Positions 4,368-25,259 of a stretch of 32,000 nucleotides of DNA are shown one piece after another. The DNA is taken from assembly GCA_037441475.1 (NCBI GenBank), contig JBBISB010000001.1, positions 485,365 through 517,364 of the forward strand. Direction: 5' to 3'. A program made the translations under genes and the position numbers. The notes below the pieces were generated by a model, which made no database searches, was not told the origin of the DNA, and was given only the letters and a program-made list of their open reading frames with translations. Position 1 is the first letter of the stretch, and every line of letters starts with the position of its first letter. This DNA comes from Candidatus Iainarchaeum sp. Lineage in GTDB: Archaea > Iainarchaeota > Iainarchaeia > Iainarchaeales > CSSED10-239.

Positions 4368-4396
4368 AAAAAGCAAAAGAAGGATGTGCATGATTA

Positions 4397-5222: not shown

Positions 5223-5235
5223 AGGTGCTTTGTAA

Positions 5236-5730
5236 ATGGATAAACATATCTTATATTTAGAAATTATTTTTTTAGCCTCAATAGTGGTTAACTTAATTGT
5301 TCCTGGTATGTTATTTCTAAAAATACTTTTAATGCTTTTAACCTTTTTATTCTTCTATAAAGAGCTTGAAAGCTACCCATATATTAAAAACAAATACGTG
5401 TATATAGGTATTGGTTTTACAAGTATCTTACTTTTGTTTATAATAGCAGATTACATTACTCACATTTATTTTTTAGTTTTCTTTATGTGTCTTGTAGTAG
5501 CTTACCTTTATTTATTCAAAATTTTATTTAATGAAACATACGGCGTGGTTGTAAAGAGCACAGATAAAGAAGTTACCTTTAAGCTAGAAGATCCTTTCTT
5601 TTTATCTAAGAAAGAATATTCTTTAAAATACTCAAGGAAAGTAGCAGTAGGGTCAACAGTTATAATTCAACTATCAACATTTTTCATAAACAAAAAACCA
5701 ATTAAGATAAAGAAAATAATTTCTAAATAG
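5236..5730 (+). CDS. Hypothetical polytopic membrane protein with a small C-terminal soluble domain
   Basis: Three to four hydrophobic helices are followed by YGVVVKSTDKEVTFKLEDPFF... GGTG SD-like taaaggtg lies upstream. No family was recognised. Confidence 0.5.
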   Translation: MDKHILYLEIIFLASIVVNLIVPGMLFLKILLMLLTFLFFYKELESYPYIKNKYVYIGIGFTSILLLFIIADYITHIYFLVFFMCLVVAYLYLFKILFNETYGVVVKSTDKEVTFKLEDPFFLSKKEYSLKYSRKVAVGSTVIIQLSTFFINKKPIKIKKIISK

Positions 5731-5749
5731 TTTTTTTAAAAAATAAAGC

Positions 5750-6118
5750 ATGGATGTAACAAAACTAAATAAGTTTTTAATTTTTCTAACAGTTGCTTCT
5801 CTTTTTGCTTTATTCCTTTTAACCGCTTTTTTTAAAACCCCTGAAATCAATCTTCTTGAAGATAATTCTCTTTATTTAGAAAAGTAGGTTTCAGTAACAG
5901 GAGGTGTAAAACATTTAGATGTAAAAGAAAATAATTTATTTTTTTCTATATGTAATCTTTCAAACTGTTTACCTGTTGTTTACTTTAACCCTTCTAAAAC
6001 AAACTTACATTTACTTGAAAAAGCATACCTTGAAAAGAAAACCTTGAAGGTAACCGGTAAGCATACTCTCTATAATGGTAAAGAAGAAATTATTTTATAT
6101 AAATATGAGATTAAATGA
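5750..6118 (+). pseudogene. Membrane-anchored OB-fold (tRNA_anti-like) protein interrupted by an in-frame TAG at 5885-5887
   Basis: Hand translation: MDVTKLNKFLIFLTVASLFALFLLTAFFKTPEINLLEDNSLYLEK*VSVTGGVKHLDVKENNLFFSICNLSNCLPVVYFNPSKT...LKVTGKHTLYNGKEEIILYKYEIK*. One frame runs throughout (366 nt from the ATG to the TGA). The TGA overlaps the next ATG (ATGA). The gene is not in the ORF track. Confidence 0.55.
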
Positions 6119-7290
6119 TTCTTGAGATAATCCTTGGAGTAATAACAGGTTTTCTTTTTGGTTTAATCCCTTCAATGCACATTAACTTTGTTTCTTACTT
6201 GTTTTTATATTTTGGTTTATTTTTAGTTTTTCCTGATAAATTTTATTTTTTCCTTTCTCTTTCAATCTATCAGTTAATAACAAGTTACCTTCCACAAACT
6301 TTTTTCTCAGTTCCAAACACAGAAAACATAATGTCTTTATTTCCCTTGCATAAGATGTTTCTAAAAGGGCTTTCGAGGGTATTTTTTTAGATTTTCTTGG
6401 TTCTTTTTTTGGCGCTATCTTTGCCCTATGTTTCCTGTTTTACTTTATCTTCTTTTCTCTTCTTTAATAGGTTTTAGTTTTCTAATATCTTTTGCCATTC
6501 TATTTACTCTCTTTAGTTTTTTATTTTTGAAGAAAGTAACAAAGATAGGTTAATTGTTTTATTTATTTTCCTATCTTCTTCTCTTCTAGGTCTTTTAACC
6601 TTGAAATACAATTATTTTTTAAAAGAGCCATTATTTGTTTGTGTGGTTGGTTTGTTTACTCTTCCTCTTTTAATAAAATCTATTTTTGAAAAGCATAAAA
6701 AAGTTTTTCAAGAAACAAAAGAAAATTTTTCTTTCCCTTCCTTAGAGGCTCTCAAGCTTTCTGTTGTCGGCTCTCTTTCCTCCCTTCTAATAATCTTAGT
6801 GCCTTCCTTTTCTTCCTCTCAAGCAGGTACAATTGTTTCAAGGTTTAAAACTAATTTTTCTTCTAAACAATACATTGTTCTTTTTTCAAGCATCTCCATA
6901 AGCGCTTTAATCTTCTCTTATTTTCTTGCAATGTTTTTTATAAGCCAAGGCTAGGTATATAGCTATTCTTTTAATGGAAAAACAGGTTCTCTCTAGGGGG
7001 ATATTTTCTTTTTTATAATAACTGTTTTGCTTTCAGTTTCTTTTTCCCTCTTACTTTTAAACTCAGTTTTAAAAGATATTATAAGGTTTATTAATTCAAG
7101 AGATTTAAATAAAATAAATATTTTATTTTTAATATTTTCAGTTACTTTAGTTGTTTTAATCTCAGGATGGCTCTCTCTTCCTTTTTTATTTTTAAGCACC
7201 TTAATAGGTTTTCTTCCTTTACAGTACAATAAATCAAGGGTGTTGTTAATGGCCTATATAATGCTACCCACCCTTTTATTTTATTTATAG
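6115..7290 (+). pseudogene. TctA/DUF112-like permease, fragmented by about six -1 frameshifts
   Basis: The N-terminus MILEIILGVITGFLFGLIPSMHIN and LFPLHKMFLKG resemble the GLIPG(I/L)HxN and LPGHRxLLKG motifs of archaeal DUF112/TctA permeases. Sensible sequence continues by hopping frames 1>0>2>1 (6380-6560; for example FLDFLGSFFGAIFALCFLFYFIFF in frame 0) and again 1>0>2>1 (6930-7020). Several shifts lie at T6-T7 runs. Confidence 0.6.
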
Positions 7291-8027
7291 ATATTTAACT
7301 TAAGAATAAAAGCAAGTAATCTATTCTTAAAACCTGGCGCGAAAACAACCTTTCTTTTCTTAAGTGCTTTAATAGATCCTCTGACAACCTCTTCTGCTTC
7401 CATGTACATAAAGGAAGGTAAGACCGGTAGCATAGTCTTAAAGATAGCTGTTTTATCAAAGTTTGTTTTTGTAGACCCAGGGCAGAGTGCTTGAACTTTA
7501 ATTTTTTTATTTTTTTTATTAATCTCATCTTGAAGGTTTCTTGAGAAGTGAATGATGTATCTTTTTGTGGAGTTATAAATAATGTTATTTTTTGCTGTAA
7601 ACAAATAACATGCTAATGAAGCTACATTGATGATTACTCCTTTATTTCTTTTAAGCATGTAAGGTAGTGCTGCTCTTGTAAGTAAAGTGGTCGCAAAGAT
7701 ATGCACATTTATCATGTCCTCTGTAACCTTTAAATCAACTTCACTAAAAGGTACTCTATTTCCAAACCCTGCATTATTAACTAAAACATCAATATTTTCT
7801 TTTTCTATTTTCTTTGCAAGTCTTTTAATCTCTTCAGGAACTGAAAGGTCACATAGATAATACTCGCAGTTGATGTTATATCTTTCCTCAAGATCCTTTT
7901 TAATCTCAATAAGTGCTTCTTTGTTTCTTGCAACTAAAAGCAAATCCTTTTTTTCTTTTCCAAACTGATAAGCATATTCTTTTCCAATCCCACTTGAGGC
8001 CCCAGTAATTAATATTTTCTCTCTCAT
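7281..8027 (-). CDS. Short-chain dehydrogenase/reductase (SDR family)
   Basis: ILITGASSGIGKEYA (TGxxxGxG), NNAG, and the catalytic YNSTK (YxxxK). Confidence 0.9.
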   Translation of the reverse strand: MREKILITGASSGIGKEYAYQFGKEKKDLLLVARNKEALIEIKKDLEERYNINCEYYLCDLSVPEEIKRLAKKIEKENIDVLVNNAGFGNRVPFSEVDLKVTEDMINVHIFATTLLTRAALPYMLKRNKGVIINVASLACYLFTAKNNIIYNSTKRYIIHFSRNLQDEINKKNKKIKVQALCPGSTKTNFDKTAIFKTMLPVLPSFMYMEAEEVVRGSIKALKKRKVVFAPGFKNRLLAFILKLNIYK

Positions 8028-8060
8028 GTTTCTTTCCTTCCTTTTTATTTTCCTTTTAAC

Positions 8061-8073
8061 AATAAATATATAC
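8061..8073 (+). promoter_or_regulatory. Candidate archaeal TATA box for a leaderless JAMM transcript
   Basis: aataaatatatac is centred about 27 nt upstream of the ATG at 8095. No SD lies in between. Confidence 0.35.
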
Positions 8074-8094
8074 TTTAAAGACTATATATATTTT

Positions 8095-8484
8095 ATGGCT
8101 GATTGGTATATTTACAAAGACGTTCTTGAAAGCATAATGGAGTTTTCAAAAAGCTTTTACCCTAATGAATTTTCAGGAATGCTAGTTTCTAGAAATAATA
8201 TTTTTCAAGATATATATATAATACCACAAACAAAGAGTAATGAAAATTCAGCAACTATTAGGCTTGACTTTGTACCACTCTCTCTTTCCATTAATGGTTC
8301 AGTTCACTCTCACCCTTCAGGTGGAGGAGAGCCTTCTAGAGAAGATCTTTCTTTCTTCCAATCTAAGGATATTAACATAATTGCCTATTATCCATTCTCT
8401 CTTTACTCCTTTAAGGCCTATGATTCTAATGGTAAAGAGATCAGTTTAGGCGTGATATTACGCGAAGAAAGCAAAAATTTATAA
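8095..8484 (+). CDS. Stand-alone JAMM/MPN+ metalloprotease (AfJAMM / SAMP-deconjugase-like)
   Basis: Complete JAMM motif: E(FSGMLV)...H-S-H-PSGGGEP-S-RE-D (HxHx7SxxD). The ORF-track start at 8026 adds an implausible hydrophobic leader overlapping the divergent SDR start. The ATG at 8095 (MADWYIYKD) is preferred. Confidence 0.85.
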   Translation: MADWYIYKDVLESIMEFSKSFYPNEFSGMLVSRNNIFQDIYIIPQTKSNENSATIRLDFVPLSLSINGSVHSHPSGGGEPSREDLSFFQSKDINIIAYYPFSLYSFKAYDSNGKEISLGVILREESKNL

Positions 8485-8586
8485 ACCTGCCGACACAAAA
8501 AATTTAAACATTTTGTAACATTAGTTATTTTAGAGCAAATAACTTCTATTTTCCAATTTATTTTTTAAAAGGAGGACAAGTTTACC

Positions 8587-9168
8587 ATGCAGTCAGATAC
8601 TAAAAATAATATTAATGAAAATGATGTTTCTTTAAATAAAACAGAAGATGTTTTAGAAAATGAATCTTCTTTAGAAAAAGGTTCTTTAGAAGAGTCTTCT
8701 TTAGAAGAAAACAATAACTCTCAAGAGGAAGAATATTTAAACAAAATTTCTTTTCTAGAAGATCAACTAAAGTTATCCTTAGCAGACTTTTCAAACTATA
8801 AAAAAAGAATGGCAAAGGAGCAAGATAATTTTCTATTCTTAGAAACTTCAAAAATAATTTTAGATTTTCTTTCCTTTAAAGAAACTTTACTAAAAGCCAT
8901 TGAGCATGAAGAAAACATTTCTTCAAAAAACAACCTACTAGAGATAAACAACAATTATGATTTAATACTCTCAAGATTAAATATAAAAAAAATAGATCTT
9001 TTAGGTCTTGATTACGATTACAATACAGCAGAGTGTGTCCAAACATTAAAAGTAGATAAAAAAGAAAAACATAATAAGATACTAGATGTCTTAGAAAACG
9101 CTTATACTTATAAAGATAAAATTATAAAACCAGGAAAAGTAATAATCGGTTTATTTTCGGAGGAATAA
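8587..9168 (+). CDS. grpE: GrpE nucleotide exchange factor
   Basis: DFSNYKKRMAKEQD signature, an acidic low-complexity N-terminus, a strong SD (aaaggagg), and position immediately upstream of dnaK. Confidence 0.9.
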   Translation: MQSDTKNNINENDVSLNKTEDVLENESSLEKGSLEESSLEENNNSQEEEYLNKISFLEDQLKLSLADFSNYKKRMAKEQDNFLFLETSKIILDFLSFKETLLKAIEHEENISSKNNLLEINNNYDLILSRLNIKKIDLLGLDYDYNTAECVQTLKVDKKEKHNKILDVLENAYTYKDKIIKPGKVIIGLFSEE

Positions 9169-11010
<1,842 letters not shown>

Positions 11011-11052
11011 ATCTTTTTTTTTTATTTTTTTAAAAAAACTTAGTGATAAACC

Positions 11053-12192
11053 ATGCAAGACAAAGACTACTACTCTCTTTTAGGGGTTTCAAAGGATGCC
11101 TCTTTAGATGAAATTAAAAAAGCCTATAAAACCTTAGCAAAGAAGCATCATCCTGACTTAGCAGGAGCTTCTGCAGATGCTGAGAAGTTTAAAGAGATTA
11201 GTAATGCCTACTCTGTTCTTTCTGATGCAGAGAAGAGGAAACAGTATGATTCCTACGGTCATGATGCTTTTTCAAAAGGGTATGCGGGAAATGCTGGACA
11301 GGGGTTTTCTGGTTTTGGTGGTTTTGATTTTTCAGATATTTTTAATTCCTTTTCAGATGATGATGACGGTGGTTTCTTTTCTCAATTTTCACAAAGAGGG
11401 CAGCGTAGAAGAGAGAGAGAAGAGGACTTAAACCTTGTTTATAACCTTGAGATTGATTTTGAAACAGCTATCTTAGGTGGCAAAGAAAAAATAGAATACT
11501 ATAAAGATATTGAATGTAATTTCTGTGCTGGAACAGGCTCAAAGGACATGCAAAAAGATGTTTGTTCAACCTGTAATGGAAGAGGAAGAACAGTTACAAC
11601 CAAAAGAACTCCTTTTGGAATGTTCTCTGTTGAAAACCTTTGTTCTACCTGTAAGGGAAATGGTTATGTTATTAAAAACCAATGTTCAAAATGTTCAGGA
11701 AAAGGTTTTGTGAAAGATAAAAAAACATTGTCTGTGGATATTCCATCTGGTATTAACACAGGAGATGTCATGAGATTAAGAGAGCAAGGGCACAACCACC
11801 AAGGTGTTAAGGGAGATCTTTTCTTAAACATCTCTGTTAAAAACCACGCTTTCTTTAAAAGAAAAGGAGAGGATCTTTACTGTGAGGTTCCAGTTACTTT
11901 TTCAGATTTAGTTTTAGGAACCACTCTTAAGATAAACAAGTTCAAGGACAAAATAAAATTAAAAATACCCGCAGGGACAGCTAACAACACAACCTTTAAG
12001 GTAAAAGGAACTGGTGTTTCTATCTTTAGTAGAAGAAATGTTCCTGGTGACTTGTATGTTAAGGTGTATGCCTTTGTTCCTGAAAAGATAGACTCTGATT
12101 TTAAGAAGAAAATAAAAGATATTTCTTCTCTTGAAAAAGAGCTTATTAAAAAAGAAATTTCTAAGGATAAAAAGGAGTATGTAGAATATTAG
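11053..12192 (+). CDS. dnaJ: Hsp40 co-chaperone DnaJ (type I)
   Basis: J domain with HPD (DYYSLLGVSKDASLDEIKKAYKTLAKKHHPD), a G/F-rich linker and four CxxCxGxG zinc-finger repeats. The gene ends with TAG. Confidence 0.97.
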   Translation: MQDKDYYSLLGVSKDASLDEIKKAYKTLAKKHHPDLAGASADAEKFKEISNAYSVLSDAEKRKQYDSYGHDAFSKGYAGNAGQGFSGFGGFDFSDIFNSFSDDDDGGFFSQFSQRGQRRREREEDLNLVYNLEIDFETAILGGKEKIEYYKDIECNFCAGTGSKDMQKDVCSTCNGRGRTVTTKRTPFGMFSVENLCSTCKGNGYVIKNQCSKCSGKGFVKDKKTLSVDIPSGINTGDVMRLREQGHNHQGVKGDLFLNISVKNHAFFKRKGEDLYCEVPVTFSDLVLGTTLKINKFKDKIKLKIPAGTANNTTFKVKGTGVSIFSRRNVPGDLYVKVYAFVPEKIDSDFKKKIKDISSLEKELIKKEISKDKKEYVEY

Positions 12193-12266
12193 GTATCTTT
12201 TACTTCTTACCTTTCTTTTTTCTTTTTTTGTTTTTCGTCTAAATTTTTCTTATTTTATTTTTTTCT

Positions 12267-12280
12267 AAAAGTATATAAAC
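12267..12280 (+). promoter_or_regulatory. Candidate archaeal TATA box for a leaderless rtcB transcript
   Basis: aaaagtatataaac is centred about 27 nt upstream of the ATG at 12302. Confidence 0.35.
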
Positions 12281-12301
12281 TATTTTGTGCATATATTTAA
12301 T

Positions 12302-13669
12302 ATGCATTCTTCTTTCACTTATAAAAAAGGTTTTTTCATTTCAAGAAATAATAATAGAGAAATTAAGATAGCCATAAGTAAATTACTTTTTAAAAACATA
12401 TCAAGTGAGGCCTTCAATCAGCTTCTCTCAATCTCCTCTTTAAAAGAAGTTTCTTCCCCAATCTTAGCAATGCCAGACATTCATCCTGGGTTTGGAGTTC
12501 CAATAGGTTCTGTCTTTGCTTCTTTAAAAGAAAATGCAATCATTAGCGCCGATGCAGTAGGGTATGATATTAACTGTGGAATAAGGATTATTAAAATAAG
12601 TCTTTTTTTAAAAGATCTAAAAAAAGAAGATCTTGTACTTCTTTCCAAAGAGTTAAAGAAACTACCCTTAGGGCTTTCAAGTGATGGTTTAAAATTAAAT
12701 AACAAAGATTATCTAGACATCTTAAAGCAAGGCGCAAACTGGTGTGTGTCCAAGAAATATTGTGAAAAAAAAGATTTGTCTTACATGTACAACCAAGGCT
12801 TCTTTAAAGATGCAGACGTTTCTAAAATTTCAAAAGAGGCTTTAAAGAGAGGTAAGACGCAGGTAGGCACTTTAGGGCAAGGAAATCATTTCATAGATAT
12901 CTTAGAGGTGTCTAAAGTTTTTAACAAGGATATAAGTAACCAATTTGATTTAAGAAAAGGGCAATTAGTTATTATGCTACACACAGGCTCTCGTGGCCTA
13001 GGCCATCAAATAGCTTCTGATTATTTTAAAAAATTTAAAATAAAAGAACCATTATCTCATGCCTCTTTTTCTTCAAAAGAAGGAAGTGATTATTACAAGG
13101 CTATGTGCGCTGCTGCAAACTTTGCTTTTGTAAACAGAACAGTTCTTTCTTCTTTAATAAAAGATGTTTTTTTAAAAACTTTAAAAAAAGAAATTAACTT
13201 TTCTCTTCTCTATGACCTCTCTCATAACATAGCTACTTTTGAAAAGCATAATGGTAAAGAGTACCTTGTTACAAGAAAAGGGGCAACTAGAGTTTTTTTA
13301 AAAGAAGATTTATCTTCAAAAAGTCCTTTTAAAAAAACAGGTTCTCCAATAATCCTTCCAGGCTCAATGCTAGATGATAGCTATATATTAGTCCCTGATA
13401 AAGGGGTTAAGGAAACCTTTTCTTCAGTAGCTCATGGTTCAGGAAGAAGTCTTTCAAGAAAAGAGGCTAAGGAAAAAATATCTTTTAAGGATCTTAAGTC
13501 TTTAATGGAAAAAAACAATGTTATTCTAGAAAACATTTCAGAAAACCTAGCAAGGGAAGAACAACCCTCTTCTTACAAGTCATCAAAGGAAGTTGTGCAG
13601 GCCATGCAGGATTTAAAAATGGTAAAGAAAGTTTTAAAACTTAAACCGATCATTGTAATAATAGGCTAA
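12302..13669 (+). CDS. rtcB: RNA 3'-phosphate/tRNA-splicing ligase RtcB
   Basis: GYDINCG, GQGNHF, HTGSRGLGHQ and HGSGR motifs. The ORF-track start at 12287 is a GTG. The ATG at 12302 fits the upstream TATA spacing. Confidence 0.93.
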   Translation: MHSSFTYKKGFFISRNNNREIKIAISKLLFKNISSEAFNQLLSISSLKEVSSPILAMPDIHPGFGVPIGSVFASLKENAIISADAVGYDINCGIRIIKISLFLKDLKKEDLVLLSKELKKLPLGLSSDGLKLNNKDYLDILKQGANWCVSKKYCEKKDLSYMYNQGFFKDADVSKISKEALKRGKTQVGTLGQGNHFIDILEVSKVFNKDISNQFDLRKGQLVIMLHTGSRGLGHQIASDYFKKFKIKEPLSHASFSSKEGSDYYKAMCAAANFAFVNRTVLSSLIKDVFLKTLKKEINFSLLYDLSHNIATFEKHNGKEYLVTRKGATRVFLKEDLSSKSPFKKTGSPIILPGSMLDDSYILVPDKGVKETFSSVAHGSGRSLSRKEAKEKISFKDLKSLMEKNNVILENISENLAREEQPSSYKSSKEVVQAMQDLKMVKKVLKLKPIIVIIG

Positions 13670-13773
13670 AAGTTGTTAAAAACAAATGTGATAAGATGTA
13701 TCTTAAAAAATTAAAAGTTGTTTCAAAAGAAAATAAGTGTTTTAAAAAGATAATGTTTAAAGGTCGGTAAATC

Positions 13774-14732
13774 ATGTTTAAAAAACTAATATCTAAATTA
13801 AAACCAAAACCAAGGTCCCTTGAAAAAGAAAGAGCAATATATAATGAAAAATTTCATTTTTCTTATGGTTTTAGAGTTAATGACGATAAAAAACTAGATG
13901 TTATAAAAGACATTTATCTTTTTTTAAAGAAAGATAAGCGTTTAGAGTCTTTTGTTTTTGTAGGCAAGGCTCATCACAATAATCAAGGATGTCCTCTTGA
14001 GGTTTATCCTCAAGTTTATCTTCTTTAAAAAAATTAGATCCTAACGTACACAATTATTTTTTAAGGTATGGCTTTTATGGTCTTTTAGAAATTTCTAAAA
14101 AAAATAATTACATTAATTTTAATAATAATATATTAAAAGTTGAAAAATTATATTCTCTTGCGTCAAAGCTACCTTTTGATGAAAAACAAAAGGTCAATGA
14201 GTTTGTAAAATATTTAATAAGAACAGAAAAAATAGGTTCTTTTTCGAATAAACAAATTGAAAGAGAAGTTGAAAGAATTAAAGCAGGGCTATTACAAACA
14301 AAAATAACATCTTCAAAAAAAAGAAAAAGTTGTGATGAAACCTACGGAGGTTTTTTAAGAGCACTTTCTTCAAACACAGCATACTTTACAACTATTGAAA
14401 ATAAACTTTATTTAGAAAAATCACATATAGGAAAGAAAGAGAATTATGCTGGATACAGTAAGCTAGCTCTTGATTTAAGCAACCTTAATGTTTACAGTAT
14501 AGAAACTATTAATGGGAGAAATGTTGTAAGTGAAAAAGCACTTGATTTTTTTGACAGCTATAAAACGTCCATAAACTTATCTGTTACTTCTTACTTTGAA
14601 AGATTAAAAGATAACTATATTAAATATTATCAAAATAAATCTTTTAAAACAGAAGCGCAAAGACAAAAAGCCATACAAAGAATACAAGATATATTTAATA
14701 AAGATAGAATTTCTAATCTATCCAAGAAGTGA
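13774..14732 (+). pseudogene. Hypothetical protein (about 319 aa if repaired) split by one -1 frameshift near the A7 run at 14026-14032
   Basis: The listed 84-aa ORF (frame 1) ends at 14028. A 244-codon frame with no stop and no Met (frame 0, 14001-14732, PNVHNYFLRYGFYGLLEISKK...QRIQDIFNKDRISNLSKK*) follows and overlaps it. 959 nt + 1 = 960, which is divisible by 3. No family was recognised. Confidence 0.55.
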
Positions 14733-14736
14733 TAAA

Positions 14737-15761
14737 ATGTACGCGCAAACAAAAATTTCTTTAATGTCTTGTAAAGGGGGACGTAATTTTTCTATAAAAG
14801 TTTTAAATCACTTAAATAGATTTTTAAAAGAAGATAATTTTTCTCCAATTTCTTTAACAGACACAGAAGAGGTTCAGTTTAAACACAGAAATAAAATCTA
14901 ATGTTCTAGAGTCAATAAGAGGTAGAGATGTTTACATTATCCAAGATGTTACAAACACTTCTTTTGGATATTTGGTAAGTGACAACATCCTTGCTTTAAA
15001 AACATTAATCAACTCAGCAAGGATATCAGGCGCATCAAAAATAAATGTTATCTTACCAACCTTTCCATTTTCAAGACAAGATAAATCTTTTTCAAGAGAA
15101 GGGATTACAGCAAAAATGTTTGCTCAAGAAATCGAACTTTTAGGAGTTAATACCTTAATCGCCTTAGATATCCATAACCTTGCAATTGCTGGTTTTTTTG
15201 ATAAATGCATTTTTGAAAATTTAAAAGGTTTTAGAGATATTACAAGATTTGTTAAAAAAAATATGCCTCTAGAAAATCTAGTTGTTTCTTCTCCCGATAT
15301 TGGTGGTCTTAAAAGAGCCGAAGGCTATGCTTCTGAACTTAAAATAGATTTAATCTCAATCTATAAAGAAAGAAGTTATACAAAAATAGATCAAATAGAT
15401 AAAATGTATATTTTAGGAGAGGTGATTGGAAAGAATGTTTTACTTGTTGATGATATGATAGATACAGGTGGAACTCTTTACAATGCAGCTAAACTTCTAA
15501 AAAAAGAGGGTGCAAATGAAATTTATTGCATGTTCCTTGCCTTTCTTTAACTCTCCTTGTCTTGAAAGATTTAATGAACTTTTTGAAAATAAAGTTTTAA
15601 CTTATGTTATAGGCACAAATGCTATTTATCACACAGATGATTTTTTAAAAAACACACCTTGGTTTAAATCAATTGATGTTTCTGATTATTTTGCAAAAGT
15701 TATTTTTAATATCCACACCTCAAAGTCAATTTCTTCTTTACTTAAAGATATAAAAGAGTAA
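14737..15761 (+). pseudogene. prs: Ribose-phosphate pyrophosphokinase (PRPP synthetase) with two +1-type frame disruptions
   Basis: Segment 1 (14737-14900, frame 1) reads MYAQTKISLMSCKGG...TEEVQF. Segment 2 (frame 2, open from 14858) reads NTEIKSNVLESIRGRDVYIIQD...PFSRQDK...VLLVDDMIDTGGTLYNAAKLLKKEGANEIY, which includes the PRPP-binding loop. Segment 3 (frame 0, 15510-15761) reads IACSLPFFNSPCLERF...VIGTNAIYH. The shifts lie near 14878-14884 and 15520-15530. Confidence 0.8.
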
Positions 15762-15857
15762 AAAATATAATTAAGTATCAAAACACATTTTACTAATATT
15801 TATATATATTATGGTATATATATTTGTATTAAATATATACTTAAAAGGTGAGATATT

Positions 15858-16511
15858 TTGAAAACAGTTATAACAATAATCTTAGTTATGCTTGCACTAG
15901 TTGCAGCAGTTCTTTTTGTTTTGGTTGGTCAAGACAAAGACCAAGCAATAAATCCAGCGGATAACCTACCAGTTAACAATTCTGATTTAATTCCTCCTCA
16001 AGAAATAGTACTTCCTACTGAAGTAATCCCTGTTGATCCGACAATAGATTGTGCAACAGATTTTTCTTGTTTTTCTGGTTATTTATCTTCTTGTAAAAAA
16101 GATGTAAAATATTTACAATCAGAAAAAATAGAATATCCTGCAAATGGAACCAAATATAATTTTTCTTTAGAATATACAATCAATGGTTTAAATCAATTTG
16201 ATGAATGTTTAGTAAGGTTAACTTTAATTGATCATAGAACTTCTTTTTTAGAAATAGAAAGACAAAGATATTTAGCTGAAAATTATACTGAGGCTGGAGT
16301 TTTAGAAATTGAAGATCTATTAAATGTTTCTGCTGGTCACTTAGTTAAAAAAAGCGGGGTTTGTAAATTTGATATTTCTTCACATAATTTAACTTTAACT
16401 AGTTTACAGTTTTTAAATAAAATTATGCAAGGTTATGAAAATTGTTCAGGAGAATTGTTTACATCAACAGGAGATCCTTCTCAAGCACAGTTTTTCATAT
16501 ATGTAAATTAA
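15858..16511 (+). CDS. Secreted or membrane-anchored hypothetical protein (6 Cys)
   Basis: A TTG start lies 7 nt after the aaggtgag SD. The N-terminal signal anchor is MKTVITIILVMLALVAAVLFVLVG, followed by a Pro-rich linker and then a Cys-containing domain. Confidence 0.6.
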   Translation: MKTVITIILVMLALVAAVLFVLVGQDKDQAINPADNLPVNNSDLIPPQEIVLPTEVIPVDPTIDCATDFSCFSGYLSSCKKDVKYLQSEKIEYPANGTKYNFSLEYTINGLNQFDECLVRLTLIDHRTSFLEIERQRYLAENYTEAGVLEIEDLLNVSAGHLVKKSGVCKFDISSHNLTLTSLQFLNKIMQGYENCSGELFTSTGDPSQAQFFIYVN

Positions 16512-16568
16512 TATAGTTTATTAAGAAAAATAGTTTATGAAAAAAAGAAATTATCAACAAGAAAAAAT

Positions 16569-19500
16569 ATGCATAAATCAAAGAAAGCACAGGGTAATCT
16601 AGAGTCTTTGATATTAATAGGGGGTGCAGTATTAATCTCTGTTGTTATAGTTTCTGTTTTAATCTCAATTGGTGGACAAGGAAGAGATGATGCCTCTACC
16701 CAAGGAGATCAAATCTCTTCTTCCACAGATGGTCCATTACCTCCAACAATAGTTTCAGTAAATGCAAGGTATTTTGATGTTATGCAATCGACACTTTAGT
16801 TTCAACAGACAAAGTAGGTTTAATTACTTTTGCATGGAGGCCTTTATCTAAAGAAGGAACCTTTAAACTAGTAATTCAAAATTCAAAAAATGAAGTTTTA
16901 GGAGATTATGATTATGTTGTTACTTATAATTCTGAATTTCAAGATTCTAAAAACTTAAACCCAAACATTTTAACTAATTTAATTGTTTCTGATATTCCTG
17001 TAGGGCAAGGTGTTTGTGGTGACACCTATTATTTATCTATAGATGTTTCTAAGAATAATCAAACCAAAAGTTCTTCAAGATATGCTTTCAGATGGTCTGA
17101 ACAAGGAGAAAAAACTACTTTAGTTTCAAGGCCTGCTTTCTCTCCTTCAGCTGGAACTTATAACATAGCTCAGTTTCCTTTAAATGTTAGCCTAATACAC
17201 GATCCTAGTTATGCAGTTTACTATACAACAGACGGAACTGATCCTATTGTTTCTTCAACAAGAATAATATATTCTGGGGCAATAACTGTTTTGCAAGGAA
17301 CAACTATTAAAGCAGTTTCTGAGTATGCTGGCATTTATTCTGGTGTTTTAACAGGAACTTTCACTGATAGTTATTATACAGTTTCTTCTGTAAATGCAAC
17401 TCCAAGTAGTCAAATAAATCTTCAAGATCCTATTGATGTTTCTTTAGTTACTTCTACTGAACTTTCAACTATTTATTTTCCCTTAGATTCTTCAACACCT
17501 GACTGTTCAGGTAGTTTTACACAGTATACTTCTCCAATAAATGTTTCAAACAATGCAACAATTAAAGCAATTGCTTGTAGAACAAATTATCTTCCAAGTT
17601 CAGTTTCAACATTTACATATACTTTCTTTGTTCCATTAGACCCTGTTGTTATAACTCCTCCTGGTGGATCTTACACCTCTATACAGAAAGTAACTTTAAG
17701 TAACAGTAATGTAGGGGGAACCATAAGGTACACAACAACCGGTGTTGATCCAACAGAAGCAAGTCCAATCTATTCAGGACCAATAAATGTTTCTTCAAGT
17801 AAAACTATAAAGGCAATAGTGTATGTTGGTTCTTTTTCAAGTATAGTTTCTCAAGCAGACTATAACATTACTCTTCCTGCAACTGCTCCGATCTTTAGTC
17901 TGGTTCCTGGAACTTATAATAATCAATCTATTTTACTTAACACAACAACACCCTCTCCTTACACTATAAGATATACTACTGACGGTACTGATCCTGATGA
18001 AGCAAGTAATCTTTATACTGGTTCAGGTGTATATGTTTCAAATAATTTAACTTTAAAAGCAAGAGTCTATAAAACTGATTGGTCTACAAGCCCTGTAACT
18101 ACAGGTGTTTATAACTTTGCTTTATCTGCACCAACTTTTAGTACTTTTCCTGGCGCATACTCTGACTCTCAAGTGGTTTCAATTAATTCTGTTGCAGGCG
18201 TACAGATAAGTTATACTTTAGATGGAAGTAACCCTACACAAACAACTGGTACTTTAATTAACGCAGGAGAGAGCACAACCCTATCACCATTACCTCTGTT
18301 TTAAAAGCAATTGCTTATAAGAATGGTTGGTTATCAAGCCCAATTGCTCAAGGCAATTACACCATTAATGCTCCTGCTGCAAGCCCAGTGTTTTCACCTG
18401 ATGGTGGAACCCATACAAATAGTGTAACTGTTACTTTAAGTTGTGTAACTCCATCAAGCACCATAAGGTACACAACAGATGGAACTACTCCAACAAGAGA
18501 TATTGGAACTATTTATTCTTCTTCATTTAATCTAATCACTACAACAACTGTTAAGGGTGTTTGTTATGCAACTGGTTATTCAACCAGTGCTGTTTCAACA
18601 CAAACCTTTACAATACAAAACCCCCCAGGAGCAGTAACTGTTTCAGGTGGAGGAACATTCTGTAATTCAGCTACCTTAACAGCATCAGGTGGAACTGGAG
18701 GTCTAATATACTACCAAGCTACAACCTCAAATGGAACTTCTACTGCAAATCAAACAACAACTGCAAACATAACTTCATCAGGAACTTATTATTTTAGAGC
18801 GTATAGCTCAACAACAGATCTTTTGGGCACTCAAGGAAGTGCAGCAGTAACAATAAGAACAAATTTTACTGCCCCTACTTCAATAACAGGCACAAATACA
18901 ATCTGTTCTGGTAGTTCTACAACATTAACTGCTCAAGGTGGAGTTTTAGGTACTGTTGCATCTTATCAATGGTTTACTTCTGGATGTGGAATTGGTGCTA
19001 GTGCAGGTACTTCACAAAGTATAACCGTAAATCCAACCACAACTACAAATTATTTTGTTAGAATATCAGGTACATGTAACACAACTACTTGTGTTTCCAG
19101 AACAGTAACTGTTAATTCTCCTCCTACAGTAAATGTTACTCCAGCATCAAGATGTGGTTCAGGAGCAGTTACTTTAGGTGCAACAACTTCACAAGGCACA
19201 ATTGAATGGTATACATCATCAACAGGTGGCTCTCCAGTAGGAACAGGAAATAGTTTTACAACCCCAAGTCTTTCTTCTACAACCACTTATTATGTGGGTG
19301 TTACAGGTGCTACTTGTAACCCATCTTCTAGAACTCCTGTTATAGCAACTATTAATCCTCTTCCAGGAAGTGTTTCTGTAACTTTACAGAGTAGTGGGGC
19401 AGGTACTGCAACAATAGCCGCAAGTGGAGGATCAGGAGTACAATTTATTTCCAAGGAAACACTTCTAATGGCACTTCTGTAGATTTAGGTGGAACTCCTC

Positions 19501-20461
19501 AAACAGTAACTACGAGTGGAACCTATTTTTTCAGATCTAGAAGCACAGAAGGTTGTTGGGGCACTCAAGGTAGTTTAGTTGTAAATATACCTGTTGTTTT
19601 ATCTAATTTAGTTTTAAGTAATAGTCCTTCTTGCTTTAGTTTTAATTCAACAACTTATACTTATAATAGTGTAAGGTATTTAATAAGCACAACAAATAGC
19701 ATAACTGTGACTCTAACAGGCTCAGGAACAATTACAGTAAATGGTTCTCCAGTAATTTCTGGTTCAGCATCAAGTCCAATAAGTATTTCAGATGGTTTAG
19801 AAAAAACAATTACTGTTCAAGTAACTCAAGGAGGTAATTTTGCAACATACACTATAAATGTAAGAAAAATTATTACCACTCATACCGGTACAGCCACGGT
19901 AACTGAAGGAATCTCTGGTGGATTTGCGTGGAGAGTTCATAGATTTACAAGCGGTTCTGGAACTTATAATTCAAACATACCTGTAACAGCTCAATTACTA
20001 GTTGGTGGTGGACCATATAGTGGTGGTGGAGGAAATGCTGGACAATATGTCTATAATGCTAGTTATGCTTTAACCACAGGAAATAAATCTATCACAATTG
20101 GTTCTGGCGGGTATACAACAAATATATGGCCACGTACAAGAATAAGTGGAACTGCCTCTTCATTTGATACAGTAAGTGCATCTGGTGGAATTACTGGTTT
20201 AGAAGGTTATTCTAACGGTAGTGGTGGTGCAAATGGATTAGGAGTAGCAGGTCAAACCTTTGCCCAAGGGGTGCTGGTTCCCCTGGAATTGCAAATTCAA
20301 TAACAGGCTCCACTGTTACTTATGCTAAAGTAGGTAATGGTGGTAATGGAGCTGTAAGTGGAGCTGCTAATACCGGTAATGGTAGAGATGGAGGTTATGA
20401 TTTAACTTTCATTACTGGCGGTACTGGTGTTGTAATTATAAGGGTACAGATACCAGTATAG
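16569..20461 (+). pseudogene. Pilin-anchored giant mosaic adhesin (about 1,298 codons if repaired) interrupted by four -1 frameshifts
   Basis: The class III signal is MHKSKKA|QGNLESLILIGGAVLISVVIVSVLI. Frame segments run 16569-16799 (f0), 16778-18304 (f2), 18262-19482 (f1), 19395-20303 (f0) and 20270-20461 (f2). 3893 nt + 4 = 3897, which is divisible by 3. Recognised by motif: a pilin-1847-like domain, at least six CHB_HEX_C-like repeats (IRYTTDGTDP...Y.GPI...TIKA), Cys-bracketed Ig-like modules, a cadherin-like beta-sandwich, and a glycine-rich C-terminal domain ending GGTGVVIIRV. Confidence 0.75.
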
Positions 20462-20475
20462 TTTTATTTTTTTAT

Positions 20476-21750
20476 TTAAAATAGTTTCTTTTGAAGATCT
20501 TTTAGGTAAAGATTTTCATTAATTTCTTTTTCTTTATTTTCTTTTTCTTCTCCAGTGAAAAATATAAAAGGAGTTCCATAGTTTCCTCCTCCACCAGGAG
20601 AGAAGACAACTAAGTTTTGTCTAAAAGAAAGAATATACTTTGCAATATTTTCATCAATCTTTTTTAATTTTTCAAAAGATATTTTTTGCATAACTTCAAT
20701 CTCTGTATATTTTTCAATAAACCTATCGTATATCTCAATAACCTTTTTATGATTAATATCTTTCTGGTTTATAGCAATTTGAATAACCTGTGCAAGAGGC
20801 ATTAAATATTTATAATCTGGTCTTTTTGTTATTTGTTGTAAAGAAGAGTTTCCTTGAAGTAAAGCCATCTCTTGTGCTCTCTCCAAAACTCCTTTCTTAA
20901 TACTCTTTTTACATAAAGAACATTTCCATTTATTTAAAGTAGCTTGTTTTAAGGTATAATGTTTGTAGCATTTAGAGCAGGCTGTTAAACCATATTTTCC
21001 TTCCTTAGGATTATATCCAACATTATAAACCAGCTTTCCTTTTCTATCTTCTAAAAGATCTTTAAATGATTCTAAATTAGGTTTTTCCATTTCAAGGCAA
21101 ACATACTCTCTCCCTATCCTGTAACTTAAAGGAGAGTGTGAGTCTGAGAATGAAAAAAATTTAATGTTTTTTAATTCAGGTATAATATTTGCAGAAAAGG
21201 TATCTGCAGATAAACCAAGTTCAATAAATTTTATATACTCCCAGTTTTTACCATAGGCTTCTTTTAAAGTATCAAAGTGAGCAAAGATTCCAAAGTAAGG
21301 GGTAAAGACATGTGCTGGAGCAATAATTATTTCTAAGCTTTTACAGATATTTAAAAGATTTTCAGCAGTTGTTTTTAGTTTTGTTCTTCCACTTCCATAG
21401 ATAGACATATCTTGACAAAAAGGTTTTATTTCTTTTTCAAAGTCTTTTATTTGTTTAAAGTTTTTAAAATAAAGAAGATGATGCACTCTTTTTTCGGTTT
21501 CAACTTCTGTTCCTAAAATAAAATATATTTTTTTTCCATTAATCTCTTCTTTATACCTAAAACATCCATCTTCTTCAATTAAGTTTTCTTTAACATGTGC
21601 AAGCCAAACAGGATGAAGGATGTCTGCTGTTGTTAAAACATCTAGTCCTTTCTTTCTAGCTTCAGATGCTAAAAGAGGAATTGTTATGTTTTTTGAGCAT
21701 GCTGCTGCATATGGGGAATGATAATGAAGATCACAGTTAAATATTTTCAT
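20476..21750 (-). CDS. Endonuclease Q (PHP-like fold plus Zn finger; cleaves at deaminated bases)
   Basis: It recalls Pyrococcus EndoQ along the whole length: CDLHYHS, RVHHLL, PAHVFTP, ELGLSAD, SDSHSP, GKYGLTACSKCYKHYTL...WKCSLCKKSIKKGVLER and SPGGGGNYG. The ATG at 21750 is preferred over the listed TTG at 21768, which would overlap the upstream gene. Confidence 0.8.
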   Translation of the reverse strand: MKIFNCDLHYHSPYAAACSKNITIPLLASEARKKGLDVLTTADILHPVWLAHVKENLIEEDGCFRYKEEINGKKIYFILGTEVETEKRVHHLLYFKNFKQIKDFEKEIKPFCQDMSIYGSGRTKLKTTAENLLNICKSLEIIIAPAHVFTPYFGIFAHFDTLKEAYGKNWEYIKFIELGLSADTFSANIIPELKNIKFFSFSDSHSPLSYRIGREYVCLEMEKPNLESFKDLLEDRKGKLVYNVGYNPKEGKYGLTACSKCYKHYTLKQATLNKWKCSLCKKSIKKGVLERAQEMALLQGNSSLQQITKRPDYKYLMPLAQVIQIAINQKDINHKKVIEIYDRFIEKYTEIEVMQKISFEKLKKIDENIAKYILSFRQNLVVFSPGGGGNYGTPFIFFTGEEKENKEKEINENLYLKDLQKKLF

Positions 21751-21754
21751 AATT

Positions 21755-22045
21755 TCACACAACACCAAATACTTTTAAGATAAGCATAACTCCAAGACCA
21801 GCAGGCCCAAAGATAGCAGTAACTATTAAGGTTATTAGAAAAGGAAGTTTAATGTTTAAGACATAGTAAAAGAAAAGTAAACCCACAACCCCCACCACAC
21901 TATTAACAATTACATTTTTTAAAACTTTTATAAAAATAATAGTAAGAATGATTAAACCTAGGGCATACACAAGGTATATAGGGTTAAAAACAAATGTCTT
22001 TGTTGTCTCTGTTGCAGTTTCTGTTGCTAAAAATAATAAATCCAT
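21755..22045 (-). CDS. Small membrane protein, BofA-like
   Basis: Three TM helices. The C-terminal half (VLKNVIVNSVVGVVGLL...TAIFGPAGLGVMLILKVF) resembles the BofA family pattern (..TAI.GilGiPG......K.F). Its stop lies 4 nt from the EndoQ ATG. Confidence 0.5.
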   Translation of the reverse strand: MDLLFLATETATETTKTFVFNPIYLVYALGLIILTIIFIKVLKNVIVNSVVGVVGLLFFYYVLNIKLPFLITLIVTAIFGPAGLGVMLILKVFGVV

Positions 22046-22247
22046 GTTTGTTCACCTTATATATCTATTAATAGGTATTTATTAAATATCTTGTGTTTTT
22101 ATAATAATAATTCTCTTTATAAGTATTTTGTATTTTATAATATATATGAGTAAAGTAACTATTCTTTAAATAAAACAAATATTTATTAATTTTAAAAAAA
22201 TCTAATGTAAATTTAAAAAATAAAAAATTATAAAAAAATGATTAAAT

Positions 22248-22913
22248 ATGCAAGAAAATACCTCTTTTGACGAACAAGAAATAAAAAAACAATATGATTT
22301 AAAAAATCTAAGAGACTTAATAGCTAAATCTCTATCTAAGGGTTCAAAAACAGATGATGATTTAAAAAAAGAATTTCCTGAAGCTAAATATGAAGAAATC
22401 TTAGCTGTTTTAAAAAACATGCTTTCTTTAAAATTAATTAAAAAAGATGGTTTTCCTGTTAAATACTCTCTTTCAGATGAAATTTCTAAAACCTTAGAAC
22501 AAAGAAAAGAACTTTCAAATACTGATAGAAACCCTATAAAGGTATCCATAATAATTGAATCTAAGTCTGATAATAAAACAGTTTTAAGAGAGGCTATGGA
22601 AAAAATACTTTCTTCTCTTAAAGAGGATAAAGAGTATTTTGTTTATGATTCTTCTTTAGCAGAAATAATTGTTCATGATGATCTTTTTTCAACATACATA
22701 TCAGCTGAGGTTTCATGTAAAGATCTTTTTAATCTTTTCCGGCTTATTTACTACTATGGAGTAACCTCTATAGATGTTTTAAAACCTGAAAAATTAAATG
22801 TAGGTATTTCAGATCTTCAAAACTCTCTTCAAACAATAGTTGACATGGTTCATGGTTATGCTGGAATGATTTATGAGTTGAAACAAAAGAATGACCTTTT
22901 ATCTAAAAAGTGA
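22248..22913 (+). CDS. Hypothetical cytoplasmic protein, possible N-terminal winged-helix
   Basis: An intact 221-aa ORF with an AT-rich divergent promoter region upstream. The N-terminal 80 aa are helix-rich (LIAKSLSKGSKTDDDLKKEF...VLKNMLSLKLIKKDGFPVKYSL). No family was recognised. Confidence 0.5.
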   Translation: MQENTSFDEQEIKKQYDLKNLRDLIAKSLSKGSKTDDDLKKEFPEAKYEEILAVLKNMLSLKLIKKDGFPVKYSLSDEISKTLEQRKELSNTDRNPIKVSIIIESKSDNKTVLREAMEKILSSLKEDKEYFVYDSSLAEIIVHDDLFSTYISAEVSCKDLFNLFRLIYYYGVTSIDVLKPEKLNVGISDLQNSLQTIVDMVHGYAGMIYELKQKNDLLSKK

Positions 22914-23103
22914 TTTTAAGTAATTATAAAGGTAGTTTGTATTCTAAATGAACAAAGGTTTGCATTAGCAATGACACCCTTTATAAACTATTTTTATAAG
23001 ATGTGTTTTATTATAAATAATCTATTTTATAAGTCGCACTAATTTATAAAAAATAAAAATGCTTTTATTTTGATTGCATCTTTATTTTTTAAAAGGCAGA
23101 TAT

Positions 23104-23772
23104 TTATAGTTGTTTATCAATTGTTGCTTTAAAGACTTGGTAACTTTGAGCACCTGATATCTTTTGATTACCAACAATAAAGCCTGGTGTTCCTGTAATC
23201 CCGTTTGCTATAGCTTCTTGTTTTTGATTTTCAATCTTTGTTAAAAATTTATTTTCTGCTAAACATTTTTCAAAGGAAGAAACATCTAAACCAATTTCTT
23301 GTGCATACTTTGTAAATTATTCTTTAGCAAGGTTTGCTTGATTTTCATAAAGTTTTTTCTTATATTCAAAGAACTTATTTTGTTCTCCAGCACATTCAAC
23401 TGCATTTGCTGCTTTGATGTCTGTATTGTTTCTTGTAAAGTGTTTGTAGATGTATTTTACTTTTCCTGTCTCTATATAGTCAGTTTTTATATTTTCAAAA
23501 GTCGTATCATCTATTTGATATCTTTTACAGAAATGACATGTAAAGGATGAGTATTCAGTAATTGTTAATGGTGCATCTTTATTTCCTAAGAAATAAATAT
23601 TGTTTTCAGCATCTATTTTTTCTTTTAAATTTGTTTTTTCTTCAGTTTTACTTCCTGTAACATTTAATATTAATAATAATATTAAAATAGCAAGTATTGC
23701 TCCTAAAAGAATTTGTATGTATATTAGTTTATTATCTTTTTTATGTGTTGTTTGGTTTTTTGTTTTTTTCAT
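23104..23772 (-). pseudogene. Membrane-anchored DsbA-family thiol:disulfide oxidoreductase with an in-frame TAA (complement of 23317-23319)
   Basis: The listed 151-aa ORF has a TM anchor and the active site FTCHFC (CxxC). The same frame continues after the TAA for 70 codons: FTKYAQEIGLDVSSFEKCLAENKF...ANGITGTPGFIVGNQKISGAQSYQVFKATIDKQL*. That tail includes the cis-Pro loop (TGTP) typical of DsbA. 23317-23104 = 213, which is divisible by 3. Confidence 0.8.
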
Positions 23773-24098
23773 AAGTAATTACCTTTTTTTATTTTTTTAA
23801 AAAATTTGTTAAAAAATATGAAAAGTTCTAAAAGTAATTTATAAGGTGATATCTTATATTTTCCTTTTTTTTAAAGTAATTTTTTCATATTTCTTAATTG
23901 AGGCTAGGTTTTTTTCTTTTTTTTTAAAAAGTTTTTTTTGTTAAAAAATGAATAACAACCTTCTAATTATATTTGTAAGGTAAATATTTTTAAATACATA
24001 TTAATCTACTTTAATTTAACTTAACCGTAGTTTTTTTGCAATAGTTTATAAATGTTTTTATATAATAATCTATTATAATATATAGAAGGTGAGATGTT

Positions 24099-25259
24099 TT
24101 GGAAAAAAGATATAAGGCGCAAGTTTCTGTTGAAATGCTTGCTATTGTTGGTGTGGTTATCTTAGGAGCTCTTGTTTTTGCTTCATATTATTTATCAAGT
24201 GTTAATAGAAATATTGATACTTTAGAGGGTCTTGATCCTGATTTTTCTAAACTTCTTCCAAATGATCCTTCTGGTACCTTTCCAGGTCTTCCTGGTTTTC
24301 CTGGTGGGGGAGGTCCAAATCCTTTATTATGTGGTAACAATGTAATTAATACTGGTGAGCAGTGTGATGGAATAAATTTAAACGGACAAACCTGTATTGG
24401 TTTAGGTTTTGGTGCTGGTTCTTTAACTTGTAATCTTAATTGTACTTTTAATGCTAGTGGCTGTTCTGGTTATTCTGCTGCTTGTGGAAATAATATTTTA
24501 GAAGAATTTGAAGAATGTGAGATGAATAATGAAACAGACCCATCATCTCCAATGTATAGTGGAAATCCTTCTTGTACTGCATATTGTATTGATAATGAGT
24601 TAGGAATGACTGGTTCAGGAAATATTTCTTGTAACAGTAATAGTTGTTCTGTAGATTATTCTGCATGTGTTTGTAGTAACACTTATTTTAAGCCATTTCT
24701 TTTAATATTATCTGAAGATAGTGGTAGTGCAAATCAAAATATTGGTTTTCCAACAAACCTTTCAGTAGATTTTGATTCAACTGGTGCTGGTACTAAATCT
24801 TTGTGGGTTGATGTAAATGTAACTGTTAAAATATCTGGTTTTTATTCAGACAAATGTAAATACGATAATACACCAATACCTGCCACTCAAAACGGTTTAT
24901 TTATTAAAAAATTCCTTTCAGCTGAATCTAATGTAAATTATATAAAAGATATAAGTTGTTCAGCAGACGGAGTTTATATTTTTATTTTCAAAGGTGTGGA
25001 TAACTTAAATAATATTTCTGATGATGATTTATTCGAATTCACAGTACCTCTTCAAGATTCTTTATTTTTTTGTGATGCAGTCACAACAACAGATGGCTCA
25101 CTTGATGTTTGTATAAATAGATATGAAGGAGGAGCAACAGCTGCTTCTGGAGAAGTTGCATTCTTCATAAATCAACCAGATGTCTCTGAATTTACTGGAG
25201 AATCATGTATTACTACAAATGGTTTAGGTGAAGTTTGTTTTTCATTAGGTTTTAATTAA
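24099..25259 (+). CDS. Class III signal-peptide (pilin-like) protein with Cys-rich repeats (Myxococcus cysteine-rich repeat/DUF4215-like)
   Basis: A TTG start lies 7 nt after the aaggtgag SD; no in-frame ATG would retain the leader. MEKRYKA|QVSVEMLAIVGVVILGALVFA is followed by a Gly/Pro linker. Two CGNN(V/I)...GE(Q/E)C...C...C repeats follow. The protein has 20 Cys in total. Confidence 0.7.
   Translation: MEKRYKAQVSVEMLAIVGVVILGALVFASYYLSSVNRNIDTLEGLDPDFSKLLPNDPSGTFPGLPGFPGGGGPNPLLCGNNVINTGEQCDGINLNGQTCIGLGFGAGSLTCNLNCTFNASGCSGYSAACGNNILEEFEECEMNNETDPSSPMYSGNPSCTAYCIDNELGMTGSGNISCNSNSCSVDYSACVCSNTYFKPFLLILSEDSGSANQNIGFPTNLSVDFDSTGAGTKSLWVDVNVTVKISGFYSDKCKYDNTPIPATQNGLFIKKFLSAESNVNYIKDISCSADGVYIFIFKGVDNLNNISDDDLFEFTVPLQDSLFFCDAVTTTDGSLDVCINRYEGGATAASGEVAFFINQPDVSEFTGESCITTNGLGEVCFSLGFN

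Follow-up and report, generated by a model that had tools for sequence, protein, structure and literature searches.

The stretch of DNA analysed here, 32,000 nucleotides of a genome of Candidatus Iainarchaeum (genome G000, contig C1, positions 485365-517364; hereafter the window), contains six protein-coding genes whose reading frames are broken by frameshifts or nonsense codons, next to long genes that are intact. This raises the question whether the breaks were introduced by sequencing or assembly, whether the genes are still expressed by some form of recoding, or whether the genes are dead, and in that case how recently they died and how much of the genome shares their fate. We conclude with high confidence that all six are genuine unitary pseudogenes of recent origin, located in the chromosome of this DPANN Iainarchaeote, and that they belong to a genome-wide wave of gene loss. 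Each gene would have been functional until recently. Its inactivation would be due either to small deletions that arose spontaneously (of 1, 2 or 4 nt, in part via slippage at short repeats or runs) or to a nonsense substitution, and the dead genes would then have gathered further lesions neutrally. The window would represent a lesion-rich sample of this wave; of the genes that G000 has in common with a complete sister genome, about 6-8% carry breaks of the same kind. Fixation of the lesions in the population, non-functionality of the genes and the cause of the wave, which may be a bottleneck, a lower need for these functions or an elevated mutation rate, are what we infer from this pattern.

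Genomes and comparison

The genome comprises 769 kb in two contigs (C1 and C2) with 28% G+C. Six genomes of the same genus exist; one of them, G003, which is complete and consists of a single contig of 839,632 bp, was used whole as the yardstick. The products of open reading frames (ORFs) from the syntenic regions of G001-G004 served as queries in a frameshift-tolerant protein-versus-DNA alignment with the window as target, and the results were cross-checked by stop-to-stop frame maps. For the genome-wide scan all G003 ORF products of at least 100 aa were placed on G000, and the scan was also run in the reverse direction. Under the strict filter a lesion had to lie more than 40 residues from the N-terminus and more than 25 from the C-terminus, at an identity of at least 0.45.

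Interrupted genes of the window

The preliminary description of this window had listed 13 frameshifts and two nonsense codons in six genes, and every item was reproduced by the aligner together with the frame maps. In five of the genes, those for an OB-like protein, a TctA-family permease, ribose-phosphate pyrophosphokinase (prs), a pilin-adhesin and a DsbA-like protein, homology to intact orthologues spans all frame segments. The comparison with sister genomes that had been proposed as a check showed the affected genes to be uninterrupted at the lesion sites in the relatives, and in G001-G004 they are carried as single open frames, with exceptions that are given with each gene below. Eleven of the 13 shifts are indeed -1 (six in the TctA gene, four in the adhesin gene and one in a hypothetical gene), whereas the two in prs are +1. 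Single-base loss, by which the shifts had been explained, holds for most of them; nucleotide alignments identified three of the 13 as 2- or 4-nt deletions. The placement of shifts in T6-T7 or A7 runs could be confirmed for two or three of the 13 but not for the remainder. All 13 frame changes are compatible with deletions. Besides, the neighbouring genes for the prepilin peptidase, DnaK, DnaJ, RtcB, the EndoQ-like protein, the M6 protease and the S-layer protein showed zero events in the alignment and are intact as described.

The first affected gene (5750..6118, plus strand) encodes an OB-like, membrane-anchored protein of 122 codons and is interrupted by a TAG at 5885-5887, which corresponds to codon 46, a valine codon in the relatives. 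Its orthologues in G001-G004 and in a closer relative, L078, have 121-128 aa and no interruption. Judged from the alignment, the TAG looks like the result of a 1-nt loss from an A5 run followed by a 1-nt gain 6 nt further on. Since the stop codon of this gene overlaps the start of the TctA gene, both are probably co-transcribed. The TctA-family permease pseudogene (6115..7290, plus strand) carries six net -1 shifts (frames 1>0>2>1>0>2>1) in the intervals 6354-6390, 6365-6467, 6517-6553, 6867-6954, 6944-6962 and 6997-7018. Nucleotide alignment resolved them into a single deletion of 4 nt and five deletions of 1 nt; two or three of the latter lie in T runs. The first shift is best placed as the 4-nt deletion in a short GA-rich stretch, outside the T7 run at 6382-6388, which is longer here than in the relatives. 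Orthologues of 394-395 aa are intact in G001-G004 and L078. Moreover, the gene is full-length and uninterrupted in 17 genomes of the family and broken only in G000 and G015, where it has four internal stops (C1:259518-260597). A search for a second TctA copy in G000 returned the single match only.

The hypothetical gene (13774..14732, plus strand) belongs to a multi-copy family whose members have 279-347 aa elsewhere, and it carries one net -1 shift within 14001-14026. Two pieces remain of the gene, an ORF of 84 codons that has an ATG and an open frame of 243 codons without a start codon near its 5' end. The old frame stops at the TAA at 14026-14028, and an A7 run (14027-14033) begins inside that TAA; for this reason neither a lost A nor an extra A gained by slippage explains or cures the shift, which is probably a T4 to T3 loss at 14024-14026. 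Paralogues and homologues match the downstream frame only. For the 84-codon upstream ORF homology to the N-termini of the family was not demonstrable, the relatives being too divergent, and its former fusion with the downstream frame is suggested by the start-less long frame together with the length of the family members. The syntenic copy in G001 is likewise degraded and contains one TAG and one TAA. At the same locus a gene call from Logan (248 aa; L065:18754-19500, window 13989-14735) crosses in-frame TGA codons at 13998 and 14730. The caller must therefore have used a code with TGA as Trp on this AT-rich contig, and in this organism automated annotation can conceal real frames or create false ones.

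The prs pseudogene (14737..15761, plus strand) contains 2-nt deletions near 14881 and 15527, each of which shifts the frame by a net +1. Intact prs genes were found in G003 and G004 (340 aa) and in G006. G001 retains a remnant of 38 residues and G007 also a remnant, and in G010 the gene is split into two open frames (C2:98107-99266). It was not found in G002, G005, G012, G014 and G016, all of which are incomplete genomes. This distribution shows a repeated loss of prs in the family. No second prs copy was found in G000; besides the broken gene there is only a phosphoribosyltransferase paralogue of 22% identity. The gene order also differs among the relatives: dnaJ-prs-rtcB in G003 and G004, dnaJ-rtcB followed by the gene of the hypothetical family and prs here (window 11053-15761), and rtcB followed by the hypothetical gene in G001, where the prs remnant lies 8 kb away.

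In the pilin-adhesin gene (16569..20461, plus strand) we located four net -1 shifts (frames 0>2>1>0>2) in the intervals 16778-16799, 18262-18304, 19395-19482 and 20222-20303, none of which contains a homopolymer longer than 4 nt. The gene joins a type IV pilin-like N-terminus (MHKSKKA followed by QGNLE) to a repeat-rich part with CHB_HEX_C_1, Fn3_assoc and Ig_7 domains, and its orthologue in G003 is one ORF of 1,734 aa. The sixth gene (23104..23772, minus strand) encodes a DsbA-like protein with a thioredoxin fold and is interrupted by a TAA (plus-strand positions 23317-23319) at codon 146 of about 216. The relatives have GAA (Glu) at this position, so that a single G-to-T change accounts for the stop, and 70 in-frame homologous codons including the GTPGF loop follow it. 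This gene is intact in G002, G003 and G004, its distribution in the family is patchy, and G000 has no second DsbA copy, the search giving a single match.

Presence of the lesions in separately assembled sequencing runs

Exact-protein look-ups of the intact neighbour genes led to an NCBI record and to Logan per-run contigs of SRR11582162 and SRR11582163. Neighbours with an ATG start were matched in this way, whereas the EndoQ-like gene with its assigned TTG start gave no match in the look-up. The contigs of SRR11582162 cover window positions 1-17613 and 18454-31956, and those of SRR11582163 cover 3281-11025, 11002-17613 and 18454-25039, in all cases with 100.000% identity and without gaps. Accordingly, 14 of the 15 lesions were reproduced in both runs by a different assembler. 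Because the per-run assemblies are identical across these 14 lesions, the breaks are in the sequenced DNA and are not a product of the assembler of the metagenome-assembled genome (MAG); moreover, contigs of such length and exactness imply accurate reads. The claim would have failed if an independent assembly had intact frames at these sites, and the Logan contigs carry these 14 lesions instead. A consensus artefact of mixed strains, which had been offered as an alternative to real pseudogenes, is not supported, as k-mer assemblies of two separate runs yield the same sequence.

Lesion load across the genome

Computation of the genome-wide pseudogene fraction had also been suggested. Placing the G003 products on G000 revealed 85 lesions in 50 of 597 genes, namely 44 net -1 shifts, 12 net +1 shifts and 29 in-frame stops. 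With the strict filter 36 of 580 genes are broken in G000, compared with 1 of 575 in G003 in the reverse test. The lesion load of G000 is far beyond chance. ORFs cover 0.87 of G000 and 0.91 of G003. An unfiltered frameshift scan was rejected as a measure, since its raw events were similar in both genomes and contained noise from antisense ORFs, gene ends and compensating pairs; the similarity was gone after the non-overlap and position filters were applied.

At the 56 frameshifts the net length change is a deletion in 42 cases (35 of 1 nt) and an insertion in 14. Frameshifts lie near runs of at least 6 nt in 41% of cases, against a background of 14%. Nevertheless, of the 1,041 A/T runs of at least 7 nt in the compared genes at most 14 have a frameshift nearby, although a comparable indel density in all homopolymers of the genome was what had been named as speaking against the pseudogenes. 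The in-frame stops comprise 17 TAA, 10 TAG and 2 TGA. An alternative genetic code or stop reassignment was considered and rejected, as the stop types are mixed, are confined to a minority of genes and occur alongside frameshifts. The 29 nonsense codons beside 56 frameshifts are the sort of mix expected of real neutral mutation and not of indel-type error.

The lesions cluster by gene. A random distribution of the 85 lesions would be expected to hit 76 genes (never fewer than 65 in 5,000 simulations), yet they fall in 50; at least three lesions are present in each of six genes, compared with 0.9 such genes expected. Adjacent broken genes form 6 pairs against 4.1 expected (P=0.22); a regional model of a bad patch was rejected on the ground that adjacency is not above chance. 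The high lesion count at 450-500 kb of C1 comes from a few multi-hit genes. Neighbouring broken pairs look like operon partners, as with the OB-like and TctA genes, three ABC transporter genes, and a pyridoxal phosphate (PLP) enzyme with its neighbour. Just upstream of the window lie the gene for this PLP enzyme of fold type II (C1:474536-475547), which is 91% identical to its G003 orthologue and has five -1 shifts and one stop, and a gene for a SpoIIM-like membrane protein (C1:480769-481751) with four -1 shifts; these two are the most heavily hit young pseudogenes of the genome. The ferredoxin-pilus ATPase gene (C2:10848-12589) was also among the broken genes of the genome-wide scan, and an ERCC4-type nuclease gene showed an ambiguous N-terminal difference only.

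The preliminary description regarded the lesions, if real, as an ongoing loss of metabolic, transport and surface genes. Our results support this view, and the same classes are broken throughout the genome. A Pfam scan of 48 broken genes, by means of their intact G003 counterparts, identified transporters, metabolic enzymes, the pilus ATPase and platform, tRNA modification genes, folding helpers and many hypotheticals. It returned no ribosomal protein, tRNA synthetase, translation factor, polymerase or primase among these 48. In a length-weighted random sample of intact genes, 5 of 30 belonged to such core classes (EF-1alpha, an eRF1-family protein, leucyl-tRNA synthetase (LeuRS), the primase small subunit and deoxyhypusine synthase), which compared with 0 of 48 gives P ~0.007 in a Fisher-type calculation. 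The sparing of core translation and replication makes random error unlikely, since selection respects function and error does not.

A reverse transcriptase gene (RVT_1; C1:366326-367330), which shares 87% identity with the orthologue in G003, is interrupted by an in-frame stop at codon 72. Possibly the gene belongs to a diversity-generating retroelement that is no longer active.

Age of the inactivations

A much closer relative of TctA (85% amino-acid identity) is encoded on L078, a 10.4-kb Logan contig from SRR14932604, which is syntenic with the window, has 87.3% DNA identity and carries both the OB-like and the TctA gene intact. Relative to L078, the ratio of nonsynonymous to synonymous divergence (dN/dS) is 0.095 for TctA and 0.08-0.11 for the intact neighbours. 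The deaths are therefore recent, and we estimate a neutral period below ~3% synonymous divergence. The OB-like gene has a dN/dS of 0.29, but it is short and fast-evolving in all relatives. Distances to G001-G004 revealed no lengthened G000 branch for either TctA or the OB-like protein. The conceptual Prs has a mean identity of 0.75 to seven intact relatives, which among themselves have 0.74-0.78, so that the G000 branch is not lengthened for Prs either; this dating of prs is a coarse identity comparison, as the best Prs match is 79% identical and the best RtcB match (84%) lies on a contig of 2 kb.

Alternative explanations

Several observations could be taken to mean that the true genes are intact and that the lesions are errors of sequencing, library preparation or assembly, such as homopolymer miscalls, low-coverage patches, gap filling with long reads or a strain-mixture consensus. 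Net -1 shifts outnumber net +1 shifts by 44:12, frameshifts are about three-fold enriched near runs, lesions are dense at 450-500 kb of C1, and the contig ends overlap by 55 nt in a de Bruijn-like manner, so that the MAG may be uncurated. The excess of 1-nt deletions, partly at homopolymers, also resembles the indel errors of 454, Ion Torrent and Nanopore sequencing. In contrast to such errors, however, the lesions stand in identical k-mer assemblies of two runs, include 2- and 4-nt deletions, run-free shifts and nonsense codons such as the G-to-T stop of the DsbA-like gene, touch fewer than 1.5% of the long runs and leave more than 98% unaffected, cluster by gene and avoid the core machinery; moreover, decay of these genes is also seen in relatives whose genomes others assembled. 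We therefore agree with the preliminary description that uniform homopolymer error does not account for them, and we consider artefacts in general very improbable. It had further been proposed that transcriptional slippage at A/T runs keeps some of the genes expressed; programmed ribosomal frameshifting and read-through or reassignment of stops would have the same effect. Slippage rescue of frameshifts is reportedly known from insect endosymbionts (Buchnera, Blochmannia) through the work of Tamas et al. in 2008 and of Wernegreen et al. in 2010, and their AT-rich reduced genomes with 1-nt indels, some of them in A/T runs, are comparable to ours. An AT-rich genome with many A/T runs and the A7 run adjoining the shift of the hypothetical gene are in keeping with such a mechanism. 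In our genome, however, most shifts lie outside long runs, most shift intervals have no run above 4 nt, and a single gene can have up to six shifts. Three genes carry 2-6 lesions and two carry nonsense codons, and the lone gene with a single shift has its interval (14001-14026) outside the A7 run, which lies behind the TAA of the old frame, so that this stop would persist even with one more A. None of the relatives examined shares the shifts; all of them, including the one with 87% identity, are uninterrupted at these sites, and the mixed stops point to no reassigned codon. Slippage is thus unsupported for all six genes, and we regard expression by recoding as extremely unlikely.

A different objection accepts the lesions as real but confines them to a clone that dominates two samples, the species as a whole keeping intact alleles; the lesions would then be slightly deleterious mutations that hitchhiked in a bloom or bottleneck and would not amount to a loss at the species level. 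The lesions are very young, no runs other than two with adjacent accessions yielded this genotype, and some 36-50 deaths would have occurred within a small part of the divergence that separates the genome from its nearest relative, which would not be a steady-state rate. On the other hand, among 5.8 billion protein clusters including those of Logan, of which the 8,000 best candidates were scored, there was no intact TctA above 85% or Prs above 79% identity, and the recurrent loss of prs in the family suggests true dispensability. We hold a clone-restricted origin to be rather unlikely. Related to this is the question of tempo. The number and the youth of the deaths suggest a recent burst. We propose only tentatively, with the balance leaning slightly to the other side, an acute burst of erosion in which 6-8% of the genus-conserved genes died before dN/dS could rise. 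Such a rate could not be the steady state of an 800-gene genome. It would indicate a bottleneck in the very recent past, a shift to another host or niche, or a mutator state, and the burst would be the first case documented in the act in DPANN archaea.

The interpretation as young pseudogenes fits the two-run assemblies, the types of lesion, the clustering per gene and the spared core genes, and so supports the earlier proposal that these are real pseudogenes. Some points weigh against it. The support for the lesions consists of per-run assembled contigs and not of read pile-ups, and the two runs, with their adjacent accessions, probably stem from the same study, so that they do not represent independent populations. 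The adhesin shift at 18262-18304 lies outside the fetched Logan contigs, as both assemblies break in the adhesin repeat. About 10 of the 50 genome-wide calls have N-terminal lesions alone, for which shifted start sites are possible. Of the six multi-hit genes, four adjoin another broken gene, which fits operon decay and also local patches of damage. Finally, six deletions in 630 bp of TctA without a rise in dN/dS require an indel to substitution ratio of at least ~1:6, a high value, though not an implausible one in an AT-rich lineage.

Comparison with known systems

Genomes of DPANN archaea have been described as compact with 'very few pseudogenes' (Kellner et al. 2018, PMC7289037), and a curated genome of Ca. 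Forterrea is available from the same lineage (Probst and Banfield 2018, PMC5905446). Our genome shares the lineage, the genome size and the lifestyle frame of this picture, and the complete sister G003 conforms to it with 1 broken gene in 575. In contrast, G000 has 36-50 broken conserved genes and an ORF coverage about 4 points lower. Single broken genes in G010 and G015 indicate that pseudogenes may be commoner in MAGs of Iainarchaeota than the literature suggests.

Young pseudogenes are known from bacteria that were recently restricted to a host or passed through a bottleneck, such as Sodalis glossinidius, Serratia symbiotica and Mycobacterium leprae. Similar to these, the broken genes of G000 have intact orthologues in relatives, they carry small frameshifting deletions together with nonsense codons, are hit several times and have more deletions than insertions. 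Moreover, accessory, transport and metabolic genes are affected, while the information machinery is spared. However, our case concerns an archaeon with an already minimal genome of 0.77 Mb and ~6-8% of the shared genes instead of 30-50%. A raised pseudogene fraction, a coding density below that of the sister genome and a deletional bias, which is said to have been described by Mira, Ochman and Moran in 2001, characterize an early stage of reductive erosion, and all three were found here. The process is ordinary reductive evolution in kind and mildly unexpected for DPANN archaea.

The shrinkage of DPANN genomes has so far been inferred from the presence and absence of genes, and freshly dead genes give a direct view of it. 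They include PRPP (phosphoribosyl pyrophosphate) synthetase, a widely conserved TctA-type permease, parts of the pilus, an adhesin and the only visible DsbA. Dispensable functions, the mutational spectrum (small deletions ~3:1 over insertions) and the speed of decay can be read from them. Any metabolic reconstruction or completeness estimate based on this MAG will include several functions that have probably been lost, and gene callers fragment the loci.

Further observations

The NCBI record found by the protein look-ups (GCA_964526055.1, CAZGHU010000001.1) has a coordinate offset of 175 nt and a length of 671,531 compared with 671,102 nt. Three blocks of 100 N in C1, one of them right after the end of the window, stand for real sequence of other length in that record. 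The contig ends match each other in reverse complement: the first 55 nt of C1 correspond to the final 55 nt of C2, and the final 15 nt of C1 to the first 15 nt of C2, which starts with a 15-nt tandem repeat. C1 and C2 look like two unique arcs of one circle with a collapsed repeat between them.

In the comparison with L078 (373-4152; window 1-3000) the genes for the pilus platform and pilins have a synonymous divergence (dS) of 0.16-0.32, whereas the genes just downstream have 0.5-0.96. This difference suggests that the pilus block was recently recombined or transferred between the two lineages. Besides, about 960 nt between hicA and the S-layer gene (window 28233-29193) contain no ORF, and G003 has a gap of similar size in the corresponding position; by its conservation this region may be a long leader or an unrecognised element.

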